DNA of 64,000 nucleotides, from NCBI GenBank assembly GCA_964016885.1, contig OZ024741.1, positions 113,460,001 through 113,524,000 on the forward strand. The letters are read 5' to 3'. Positions 30,355 to 34,519 of the stretch are shown here, piece by piece. The notes beneath the pieces were generated by a model. That model had not been told where the DNA came from, did no database searches, and saw only the letters and a list, made by a program, of their open reading frames with translations. The stretch is from Eledone cirrhosa. Taxonomy: Eukaryota. Each line of letters opens with the position of its first letter. Positions within the stretch are counted from its first letter, which is position 1. The position numbers were made by a program, and so were the translations under genes.

Positions 30355-31417
30355 CTCATAATGATGTCATAAAAACACTGCTGGGAGGGACATACTGGCA
30401 CTTTAAACCAGGCAGCACATATCCCCTTTCAGGTCTGAACATAATCAGTTTCTTCCAGAGACACAGATAGTGAGACAGAGTGAGAGACTGTCAGAAAAAG
30501 AGAGAGAAAGAATCGACTGCAGTACTGGATGGATATTCTTTTAACAATTCTTGGCAGGACTTGAACTCATTGAGTACAGAAATTCAGCTAATTTGCCACC
30601 TTCTATATATATATATATATGTGTATATATATATATATGTATATATATATATATGTATATATATATATATATATATATATATATACATATATATATATAT
30701 ATATATACATATACATATATATATATATACATATATATATATATATATATATATATATATATATATATATATATATATATATATATATATATATAATTAT
30801 ATATATATATATATGTAAGTATGTATGTATACATACATACATATATGTATACAGACGTACAGTAGCATGCATATATATATATATATATATATATATATAT
30901 ATATATATATATATATATATATATACATACAGGTACACATACATATATGTACGTATCAGTTTAGCAGACGTTTATTATAACGCCCGCTTTGTCCGTGTTG
31001 AACAAAAAGGTGACGTGGTTGCCTTAACACCGTACGGCATAAATTCAGGCTGTCAGTTTGTTTACAAACGGACAAAGCGGGCGTTATAATAAACGTCCGC
31101 TAAACTGATACGTACATATATGTATGTGTACCTGTATGTATATGTATATATATATATATATATATATATATATATGTATATATATATATATATATATATA
31201 TATATGTATATATATATATATATATATATATATATATAAATATATATATATATATATATATATGCATGCTACTGTACGTCTGTATACATATATGTATGTA
31301 CGTATACATACATACTTACATTTAAGTAAGTTCCGTACTAAGAGTGAGAAATGAAATTTCGTTTTCATTTTATTAGAACTTATCGTTTTTGGTGCGCCTG
31401 GCCGACTGAACTCACTC

Positions 31418-31494
31418 GATATGCAAATTAGGCTGCTCAGCCGTTAATTTTCATAAGCAAAGTATATACTTTCGAACGTTCAACCATCTGGCAG
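31418..31494 (+). promoter_or_regulatory. Putative snRNA/H1-type promoter: octamer, PSE-position segment, TATA, +1 GGCAG
   Basis: ATGCAAAT at 31421, TATATA at 31463, TGGCAG at 31489; same spacing recurs at 34180/34137/34111 on - strand. Confidence 0.5.
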
Positions 31495-31502
31495 AAGGGT
31501 AT

Positions 31503-31545
31503 ACGGTGCTGATGATAGCTAAGAAGCTTGAAACTAGTACATCGT
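31503..31545 (+). ncRNA. Minimal type I hammerhead ribozyme
   Basis: ACGGTG-CTGATGA-TAGCT aaga AGCTT-GAAA-CTAG-TA-CATCGT: 6-bp stem I, intact core, palindromic ACTAGT stem III, GUA site. Confidence 0.85.
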
Positions 31546-31862
31546 TCCTGTGTCAGTGTTGAACAAAAAGGTGACGTGGTTGCCTTAACACCGTACGGCA
31601 TAAATTCAGGCTGTCAGTTTGTTTACAAACGGACAAAGCGGGCGTTATAATAAACGTCCGCTAAACTGATACGTACATATATGTATGTGTACCTGTATGT
31701 ATATATATATTAATATATATATATATATGCATGCTACTGTACGTCTGTATACATATATGTATGTACGTATACATACATACTTACATTTAAGTAAGTGCCA
31801 TACTAAGAGTGAGAAATGAAATTTCGTTTTCATTTTATTACAACCTATATATATATATATAT

Positions 31863-33040
31863 ATCATCATCATCATCATCATCATCATCAGGTTTAGCGT
31901 CCGTGTTCCACGCTTGCATGGGTTTGGACGGGGGTTTTCCCACTTGAGGCAAGAGTGGTTGTCTTGCTCGCATAGGACTGTCTGGTGGGTTTTCTACAGT
32001 TGGATGCCCTTCCTAACACCAACCACATTTACAGTGTGGGGCTGGGAGGTTTTTACCGTGTTGCCTACACGGCCACATTACAGCGTGGACTGTCTGGCGG
32101 GTTTTCTACAGCTGGATGCCCTTCCTAACACCAACCACATTTACAGTGTGGGGCTGGGAGGTTTTTACCGTGTTGCCTACACGGCCACATTTACAGCGTG
32201 GACTGTGTGTTTTTTGTCGTGACACCTACACGATCTCATTTGTTTCGGCCTGGATGTTGTGGGACCAACATAACTGTACATTGAAAGGGGCGGTGTGGAT
32301 GGGGTGGAGGTGGTGGGACGGGGGGGTGTTTTGATAGAGATGCCTACTGACTGTAGTAGGTTTTTACTTTGTATTTAGGTAAGGCGGGTCTTCTCTATTA
32401 CTGAGTACCGCCAAAGGTCTCGGTCCAGTGACATTGTCTTGGAGAGGTGTAAGCGTGTGAGGTCGGAATTTATCAGCTCGTCCCATGTTTTTCTGGGTCT
32501 GCCTACTCCGTGGCTACCGTCTATCTTTATTGCCCTGCACTTTGTTATACAGCTGTCGTCTTTCATGCGCATCACGTGACCGTACCAACGTAGCCTTCTC
32601 TTGAGTAAACAACATCTGATCCCTCTTATTTCTAATTTTTTCCTTAGTTCGTTTATGCTTTGCCGTTCACGTATATTACTATTGCACATCCAGCGGAGCA
32701 TGCAAGCTTCGTTCCTCTCTAGTCTGCGTATATCCTCTGCACACAATGTCCAGGTCTCACTGCCATGCAGCATTGCTGTTCGTATGCAGGCATCGTATAA
32801 CCTGCCTTTCATTTTTAGGGAGAACCCTCTAGCGGCTAATAGTGGTATAAGCTCTCTGAACTTTTTCCATCCAGTTCTGACTCTAGCTATTGTAATTTCA
32901 GAGCACCCTCCCCCACTGCTGATTTTGTCACCCAGGTAACGGAAACTGTCCACTATTTCTATAGAACCCTCTGCGCAGTTGAAGGAGCTAGTATTTTTTG
33001 GGCACTTGCTGCTACTTATTGCACCAGAGCACCGGCCACA
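31863..33040 (-). mobile_element. Young RTE family 3' 1.2 kb with open RT C-terminus
   Basis: [48 protein letters not shown] has an ~110-bp internal tandem duplication. Confidence 0.9.
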
Positions 33041-34047
33041 CATATATATATATATATATATATATATATATATATATATATATATATATATATATATATA
33101 TATATATATATATATATATATATACATACATATATATATATATATATATATACATATATATATATATATATATATATATATATATATATACATATATATA
33201 TATACATATATATATATATATATATATATATATATATATATATATGTATATATATACATATATATATATATACATATATATATATATATACACACACACA
33301 CACATATACAGACACACACACACACATATACAGACACAAACACACACACACACTCACACACACACACACACACATATATATATATATATATGTATGTATA
33401 TATGTATGTATTATTACATTCAAAGTAAAGGATGTCATGATTGATATTAAATCAAACATATGTCTTGTCTCTTAAAAACTGCTCATAGAATAAAATTGAG
33501 CATTCAATCATTATAAAAAAGTGACTGATATATATCTATATACACATAGGTGTATAATAAGATACATCAAACTTAAACTAAAGACAATCTGTACATAATT
33601 CATTGAGTATCATATTTTAAATTTAACTAAAAATTAAAACATAGTTACCTGATAAAGATCAATATATCTCCCTCATATGTATTCACCACAAAATCAGAAT
33701 ACATTTCACCAAATAAAGGTGAAGTTAGATATCTTGATGTATCTTAATATACACTTATGTGTGAATATATATATATTCACTTTTATATATATATATATAG
33801 GCATATGTGTGTGAGTGTATATATATATATATATATATATATATATATATATATGTGTGTGTGTGTATATATATATATATTTTTTTTTTTCACTCTACAT
33901 GGCTGAATACCATAAATGTAATCTGAGTTTTTCGAATATTAATAATAACATTCGATTCGTTTGCAATTATGCAAACAAGCATCATTTTTATACCCATGTC
34001 AGTAGAATGAACTCTTCATTCTTGCTCTTGTGTTGGCAGGTAAACAG

Positions 34048-34095
34048 AACTGCAGACACTAATGTTTCTGGGTATCCACCTTCATCAGTACAGCT
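34048..34095 (-). ncRNA. Type I hammerhead motif
   Basis: AGCTGTA-CTGATGA-AGGT ggat ACCCA-GAAA-CATTAGTG-TC-TGCAGTT: 7-bp stem I, GUC site, base of stem II imperfect. Confidence 0.75.
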
Positions 34096-34105
34096 CACTG
34101 TTCAC

Positions 34106-34183
34106 CTGCCAACTATCAGAGCTAGTGAAAATATATGCTATTCTCTAAAATATACAGTGCCTGATTGGCCTGATTTGCATATC
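34106..34183 (-). promoter_or_regulatory. Putative snRNA/H1-type promoter of element B
   Basis: GATATGCAAATCAGGC..TCAG, CATATAT 43 nt after the octamer start, TGGCAG 26 nt further. Confidence 0.5.
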
Positions 34184-34519
34184 AGCAGACTGGCCAGTCA
34201 GTTTCCTGGGCGACACCCAGAAACATTAGTGTCTGCAGTTCTGTTTATATGCCAACACAAGAGCAAGAATGAAGAGTTCATTCTACTGACATGGCTATAA
34301 AAATGAGGCTTGTTTGCATAATTGCAAACGAATTGAATGTTATTATTAATATTCAAAAAACTCAGATTACATTTATTGTATTCAGCCATGTAGAGCGAAA
34401 ATTTTCTTTTTTTTATTTGAATGTGGCAAAGACAGCTATTTCTCGTTCATATACAGGAAACTGACTGGCCAGTCTGCTGATGGCAGTAGGATAAAGGATG
34501 ACAAATAAAACAAAACAGG

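Follow-up and report, generated by a model that had tools for sequence, protein, structure and literature searches.

Hammerhead retrozymes carrying candidate small nuclear RNA-type promoters in the genome of the cephalopod Eledone cirrhosa

A 64,000-nucleotide stretch of the Eledone cirrhosa genome (hereafter the window; GenBank assembly GCA_964016885.1, contig OZ024741.1, positions 113,460,001 to 113,524,000 of the forward strand) contains two divergent hammerhead ribozyme elements, A on the forward (+) strand and B on the reverse (−) strand, each with an octamer and a TATA-like box just upstream of the ribozyme. Judged by their repeats and predicted folds, both belong to the type I hammerhead retrozymes of the kind without long terminal repeats (non-LTR retrozymes). 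We propose that they belong to one old superfamily of circular-RNA retrozymes that are mobilised by Penelope elements and promote their own transcription from a compact promoter of the type used by RNA polymerase II (Pol II) at small nuclear RNA (snRNA) genes, an account that we hold to be moderately probable as a whole.

The initial annotation of the window placed the octamer ATGCAAAT at 31421 in A and 34180 in B, followed by TATATA at 31463 or CATATA at 34137, TGGCAG at 31489 and 34111, and the hammerhead core CTGATGA at 31509 and 34088 (A on +, B on −). Direct inspection found each motif where it had been placed, with CTGGCC upstream of the octamer at 31398 (+) and 34197 (−), and the octamer-to-CTGANGA pattern has just these two sites in the whole window. 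The type I hammerhead of A spans 31478..31563 (+), with CUGAUGA at 31509, GAAA at 31530, a 2-bp palindromic stem III and predicted cleavage after GUA at 31539; that of B spans 34032..34113 (−), with its core at 34088, GAAA at 34068, a long stem I (z −7.5) and predicted cleavage after GUC at 34055.

Pattern scans covered the whole 3.0-Gb assembly, with the reversed pattern as control. The pattern TATGCAAAT-N72-90-CTGANGA has 28,174 matches as against 34 for its reversal, and a stricter version has 26,106 against none, so that the pairing of octamer and hammerhead predicted from the window is far above chance. Initial DNA searches returned 1,774 candidates for A and 1,628 for B, with best identities of 98–99% and 91–94%, respectively, among the 40 scored per family. 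By reading, the 100 matches listed of the 28,174 comprise 86 of the A lineage, seven of B, four of a third family (C), a single copy of another kind (E) and two other hammerheads; family D, which includes a 30-unit array of 466-bp monomers, surfaced in the stricter scan. Family I is a 311-bp tandem retrozyme with a tail, found as two inverted arrays (L237:950-5600), and its body is related to that of C. Monomers across the superfamily are ~310–470 bp long, so that monomer circles would measure ~465 nt in A and D, 370–440 nt in B and 311 nt in I, and at least two same-strand units are present at nine of 47 A loci and five of 12 D loci, with I in arrays. Many B copies (L031, L034, L036, L040 and others) contain three tandem 33-bp units of octamer plus a sequence resembling the proximal sequence element (PSE) of snRNA genes; the B copy in the window has one. 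Two loci with a hammerhead and an upstream octamer, lacking both PSE and TATA (L116, L117), were treated as chance occurrences, as was the only match of a metagenome scan for the cassette, which lies in a bacterial-looking coding stretch without a hammerhead.

A promoter-blind hammerhead pattern matches the genome 200,915 times (overlaps counted), against 11,609 for its control, and 40 loci were picked for variety among 100 matches listed. Because most of these are minimal hammerheads without an octamer, the octamer-PSE-TATA cassette marks tandem, long-stem retrozymes and not every hammerhead; two of the 40 carry an octamer (one mismatch at most) at 99–100 nt, and several A and B copies among them are truncated inside the promoter. 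Many minimal-hammerhead families are present genome-wide, some as perfect inverted pairs (L214–L250), and within the window a minimal core occupies both strands of a perfect palindrome at 36124-36190 (36145 +, 36168 −) that resembles a family frequent in the promoter-blind scan.

Families A, B, C, D and I are predicted to fold as type I hammerheads with the CUGANGA, GAAA and NUH core elements, stems I to III and an open stem I; the one copy of E has a damaged stem I. Among copies selected by family-specific regular expressions, which fix some positions, each of six stem I positions is paired in 92–94 of 95 A copies and in 17–18 of 18 B copies. Double changes distinguish the A subfamilies in stem I (GU in 71 and UG in 17 of 95) and occur in stem II of D (UA in nine and AU in nine of 18 copies), and three stem II pairs are switched in three of nine C copies. 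The 2-bp palindromic stem III is shared by A and D and is like that of amphibian hammerhead motifs reported in the main text of PMC7229834 to be active as dimers, suggesting that A and D would likewise be cleaved as dimers. Rfam at its gathering cut-offs gives no hammerhead match in the window, the HH9 model reaching 18.1 bits on A against a cut-off of 52 and none being listed for B; its microRNA matches were discarded as AT-microsatellite noise.

Stem I begins 15 nt after the TATA-like box in A, 20 nt after it in C and 24 nt after it in B and D, upstream in every case of the start predicted at TATA+30, a placement that would suit a functional RNA in circular or multimeric form. Predicted folds of circular monomers are much more stable than those of shuffled sequences, with z values of −6.7, −8.9 and −13.4 (30 shuffles each).

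The initial annotation regarded the bodies of A and B as unalignable by eye, a view that does not survive comparison. Their local alignment is colinear, starts at the octamer and extends across the body, with 165 of 254 aligned pairs matching over 285 columns; its score of 46 was reached by none of 300 shuffles (21.4, standard deviation 2.9), and body-only alignments linking A with B, A with D, and C with I were each equalled by none of 200 dinucleotide shuffles. The alternative that A and B are one aligning family whose spacing was simply inherited is therefore partly right: they are distant homologs, and because they align colinearly their common motif spacing is in part due to descent. Body alignments of A and B with C and with E are not significant (34–182 of 200 dinucleotide shuffles were as good), yet the octamer block is retained in both C and E, together with YCAS at +16 and a TATA sequence at +40 to +43. 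The multi-family set thus fits the expected superfamily, in which promoter and ribozyme positions are conserved over changing bodies, and it supports the view that promoter-like motifs and ribozyme position persist even where bodies no longer align (C against A, B and D). CTGGCC and GGCAG, counted as cassette parts in the initial annotation, are indeed present in A and B but have been lost from C and E and are absent from D as well, and were rejected as superfamily motifs.

The host snRNA genes provide the reference for the promoter-like block. The octamer-class set (n = 5) consists of three distinct U6 upstream regions, the best U6atac locus and the single MRP gene (L051, L052, L053, L076, L210), and promoter-less U6 loci (L057-type, L064, L065 and four of seven further copies) as well as five of six U6atac loci were excluded because they are probably pseudogenes. 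In all five, TATGSWAATKAG lies at −79 to −77 and a TATA box at −30, with 46–47 nt between octamer and TATA. All nine distinct U1/U2 upstream regions (L066-L068, L119, L132-L137, L160) instead have an RTCAGT PSE at −56 to −58 and a TATA-like box near −30. The predicted proximal element thus differs between the host gene classes, U6, U6atac and MRP genes having the octamer block at −78 and U1/U2 genes having RTCAGT at −57, and the corresponding profiles rest on five and nine sequences.

The retrozymes combine features of both. On the U6/U6atac/MRP profile the octamer blocks of A to E score 15.0–18.4 bits, compared with 15.6–18.8 for the host genes themselves, C to E having been recruited through the octamer; the block of A (TATGCAAATTAG, 31420..31432, +) scores 18.4 bits, and that of B is TATGCAAATCAG (34169..34181, −). 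A U1/U2-type PSE lies 24–27 nt before the TATA-like box. In B (34153..34164, −) it stands 27 nt before the box at 34132..34137 (−) and scores 14.8 bits, inside the leave-one-out range of true U1/U2 PSEs (9.4–15.8), with a single-family p below 0.001, followed by I (5.4 bits, p = 0.006), E (5.3 bits, p = 0.011) and A (31437..31448, +, 26 nt before the box at 31463..31468, +), which is weak alone (2.9 bits, p = 0.032); C and D score −0.9 and −6.0 bits. The six-family sum of 21.5, as against a null of −28.0 (standard deviation 8.9), was reached by none of 2000 shuffles, and the same is true without B, while none of the five host Pol III promoters scores above 0 at that place. A long ungapped profile joining PSE and TATA was set aside, being significant for B only (1 of 300 shuffles; A 174, C 209 and D 298 of 300). 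The U1/U2 rule would place the start at ~31493-31494 in A and ~34107 in B, 3–4 nt downstream of the GGCAG start predicted initially.

These comparisons alter the proposed layout, which had been likened to a type 3 Pol III promoter. The expected similarity to host snRNA promoters holds for the octamer block and fails for its spacing, since the octamer lies 40–43 nt before TATA in five of five retrozyme families and in none of the five host genes; together with a PSE at U1/U2 spacing and the occurrence of T-runs, this argues against a type 3 layout. The main rival to a Pol II promoter nevertheless keeps the same retrozyme and Penelope cycle and assigns it to Pol III, with the octamer block as the Pol III proximal element and rare read-through of terminators yielding promoter-containing circles. 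The resemblance of the octamer blocks to those of U6, U6atac and MRP and not to U1/U2 sequences speaks for it, as does the lack of any T4 run between predicted start and tail in A and B. T4 avoidance, however, is not significant in any of seven sequences (P 0.20–0.84; 0.28 and 0.34 for A and B) and was rejected as evidence for Pol III, and T4-T7 runs are found in the tails, the promoters and the bodies of C, D, E and I (T4-T5 in the bodies), B having a T4 and T6-T7 runs before its next promoter. Read-through to the next ribozyme must cross such runs, which favours Pol II, and together with the aberrant octamer spacing this leads us to regard Pol III as unlikely, if still to be reckoned with. 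In insects, differences in PSE sequence are reported to set the choice of polymerase (PMC1761439), and to the extent that this account applies, sequence alone is insufficient to decide the polymerase here.

Another explanation dispenses with a promoter: the elements would be transcribed passively by read-through from the host, and the octamer, PSE-like and TATA sequences would be remnants, or a POU-factor site that raises local expression without a role in choosing the start. The homology of the A, B and D bodies, and of C and I, is consistent with this, since motif sharing is then partly descent, as are the octamer-less family I and the paired RNA that spans the predicted start. The 5' ends of A copies (125 ends, 164 copies) likewise show no peak at the predicted start or at the cleavage site, the bins holding 2–10 ends, a result that also counts in favour of the circular cycle set out below; these figures omit the −60 to −41 bin, whose 39 ends were put down artefactually to subfamilies that differ from the reference. 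Passive transcription does not, however, readily account for the retention of octamer, YCAS and TATA at fixed spacing in the two families (C and E) with bodies that cannot be aligned to those of A and B, nor for octamer and PSE parts that match separate host promoter elements and are tripled as a unit in B, and we consider it quite improbable.

The insertions themselves point to reverse transcription. In the window, an inverted, 5'-truncated A copy (30813..30997, −) stops at a short, tail-less 3' end followed by (AT)n, and a 5'-truncated direct A monomer (30987..31383, +), consisting of body, internal AT microsatellite and tail hairpin, precedes the full A unit as a partial tandem; the body, microsatellite and ~62-nt tail of that unit (31564..31849, +) end at a long 3' end that adjoins (AT)n. 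The body and ~35-nt tail of B (33887..34031, −) finish in a T-run and then (AT)n, so that the oligo(T) first taken for a body-closing part of the cassette is the end of the insertion tail. An inverted 5' part of the B insertion (34213..34481, +) contains the 3' half of the previous ribozyme, the body, the tail and the spacer until just before the octamer, and the template of B therefore exceeded one monomer. Elsewhere, too, loci display 5'-truncated partial tandems and 5' copies in inverted orientation. The 3' ends fall into two groups ~62 nt apart in A (33 and 31 of 69), ~35 nt apart in B (10 and 22 of 42) and ~71 nt apart in D (5 and 9 of 14), C offering only two 3' ends, and nearly all adjoin (AT)n by eye. 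This two-ended tail in A, B and D is the signature of the Penelope tail, which has been traced to two internal reverse transcriptase (RT) start sites together with AT-rich cleavage, as described in PMC11167929.

The same anatomy bears on the suggestion that these are satellites or foldback repeats spread at the DNA level without an RNA step and with a dead ribozyme. Long tandem arrays of up to 30 units and inverted arms would be compatible with such an origin, but scattered copies that lack 5' sequence and share two fixed 3' ends at (AT)n are not, and neither are compensatory changes in the ribozyme; the insertion anatomy largely refutes it, and we give it very little credence.

RT+GIY-YIG frames are present in the genome; of 10,595 candidates for an autonomous partner, 150 were scored. 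Among 12 frames scanned, eight match RVT_1 or both domains at E < 0.001 and RT is present in nine. Three long open Penelope-type frames have 1096, 938 and 844 codons between stops (L192:1775-5062, L193:4309-7122, L194:2488-5019), including intact-looking RT+GIY-YIG frames to 938 aa and a 1096-aa RT frame that sits at a GIY-YIG match, and these three may have been active helpers in the recent past. Minimal hammerheads with CCAAT/TATA-like upstream sequence and no octamer cassette occur in some of the autonomous elements sampled, and others have no hammerhead. A Penelope-like helper would presumably act on the retrozymes in trans, in agreement with bioRxiv 10.64898/2026.07.22.740005. Pseudogene-like U6 and U6atac copies without promoters (L077-L081, L121, L123, L126, L127) also occur, several beside (AT)n or (GT)n, and one of them (L080) abuts an inverted B promoter, which suggests capture by the same machinery.

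From the structure, copy number, insertion anatomy, motif matches and spacing described above we infer a cycle of transcription by Pol II, cleavage, circularisation and mobilisation by a helper. Each monomer would carry, just upstream of its hammerhead, a compact promoter made up of the octamer block, a PSE that follows it by 16 nt and has U1/U2 spacing, and a TATA-like box. Pol II would start ~30 nt past TATA in a tandem copy and continue past the tail and the promoter of the following unit as far as that unit's ribozyme; two cleavages would free a monomer, and a host ligase would close it to a circle. The Penelope RT/GIY-YIG protein would nick (AT)n and begin cDNA at one of the two internal tail sites, and the RT would then roll round the circle across the ligated ribozyme junction into the promoter, so that a promoter located upstream could still be passed on via RNA. 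Relative to the predicted start the promoter is upstream, and it lies 35–90 nt downstream of the tail end; an RNA running from start to tail cannot include it, and the template must therefore be a multimer or a circle.

Several findings weigh against this account. Only B has a strong PSE match, C and D fail individually (p = 0.14 and 0.62), and the 24–28 nt PSE window was set after inspection of the data. Family I has PSE and TATA and lacks the octamer, and the octamer block itself is found in none of the nine U1/U2 upstream regions (1.1–4.1 bits). Host RNase P has a U1/U2-type PSE 32 nt before TATA and no octamer, so that PSE type alone may not fix the polymerase. The sharing of motifs between A and B is, as the alignments indicate, partly by descent. 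The near-identical spacing emphasised in the initial annotation is correct for the two window copies, but an A subfamily making up 18 of the 100 matches listed has 8 nt deleted between TATA and GGCAG, and this spacing is therefore variable. A full tandem unit of B was found at none of 20 loci, and the cassette occurs as a pseudo-LTR (pLTR), or with a common tail, at none of 48 GIY-YIG loci drawn from the 150 scored.

Neither the retrozyme class nor the concept of a hammerhead repeat with its own promoter is new. Newt satellite 2 (Coats, Zhang and Epstein 1994) reportedly has a compact promoter of octamer and PSE, and the Schistosoma Sm-alpha satellite reportedly has internal A and B boxes. As cited in PMC2220036, newt satellite 2 has an internal snRNA-type promoter transcribed by Pol II, and Sm-alpha has a promoter of its own with transcription reported as Pol III. 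The present families resemble the former in being tandem type I hammerhead repeats in which stem III is short and a candidate snRNA-type promoter is internal, and the latter in being hammerhead repeats that carry a putative promoter of their own. Unlike newt satellite 2, they occur in another animal group, form five or six divergent families where the newt has one or two, possess a TATA-like box and an octamer block that copies a host Pol III-gene element, and show a clear Penelope tail with (AT)n targeting.

Metazoan non-LTR retrozymes, which occur in mussel among other animals, are described in PMC7229834 as having a circular RNA cycle with Penelope proposed as helper, and like the elements here they place type I hammerheads in short, low-GC tandem repeats; the main text of that paper uses 'promoter' for T7 only and mentions no octopus or cephalopod, and the monomers described here are up to 466 bp long. 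Partial tandems, inverted 5' copies, a tail at one end, AT-rich targets and co-occurrence with RT+GIY-YIG also recall non-autonomous Penelope-like derivatives, as far as these are covered in the available text of bioRxiv 10.64898/2026.07.22.740005, PMC11167929 and bioRxiv 10.1101/2021.04.23.441226. In contrast to those derivatives, the retrozymes show no pLTR similarity in the 48 loci, and 'promoter' has no use in the available text of the first preprint. A literature search, mostly of open papers and without the PMC7229834 supplement, preprint tables, Repbase or Dfam, gave no paper describing such a promoter in any mollusc retrozyme, retrozymes in cephalopods, or the host promoter elements reported here.

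A more speculative extension, which we advance only tentatively, is that the promoter is a chimera of two host snRNA classes, joining the U6/MRP octamer block to the U1/U2 PSE and TATA, and is either independent of or deeply homologous with that of newt satellite 2; the chief role of the hammerhead would then be RNA circularisation, which lets a gene-external promoter pass through reverse transcription. Should this be both true and general, animal retrozymes would be parasites of snRNA promoters, which would explain their high, tissue-wide expression. The strong transcription of animal retrozymes and their need for a ribozyme are left open in the cited retrozyme papers, and the present families offer a concrete, testable answer: the snRNA-type promoter is defined, its start can be predicted, and circularisation acquires a purpose. 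Because the families differ in age, they also provide natural mutants in which promoter spacing can be related to the choice of polymerase, and the host U6 and U1/U2 promoter elements could serve guide-RNA expression in this animal group.

The remainder of the window contains a few other features. Between A and B is a 217-aa open frame (32378-33028, −) with no Pfam match, which we take to resemble the 3' end of an RTE-type long interspersed element. A tRNA-like head above the Rfam cut-off at 25402-25459 (+) is probably part of a short interspersed element, and a complex 46/92-bp minisatellite of TGTATG and CACTAAC units occupies 40040-42160.

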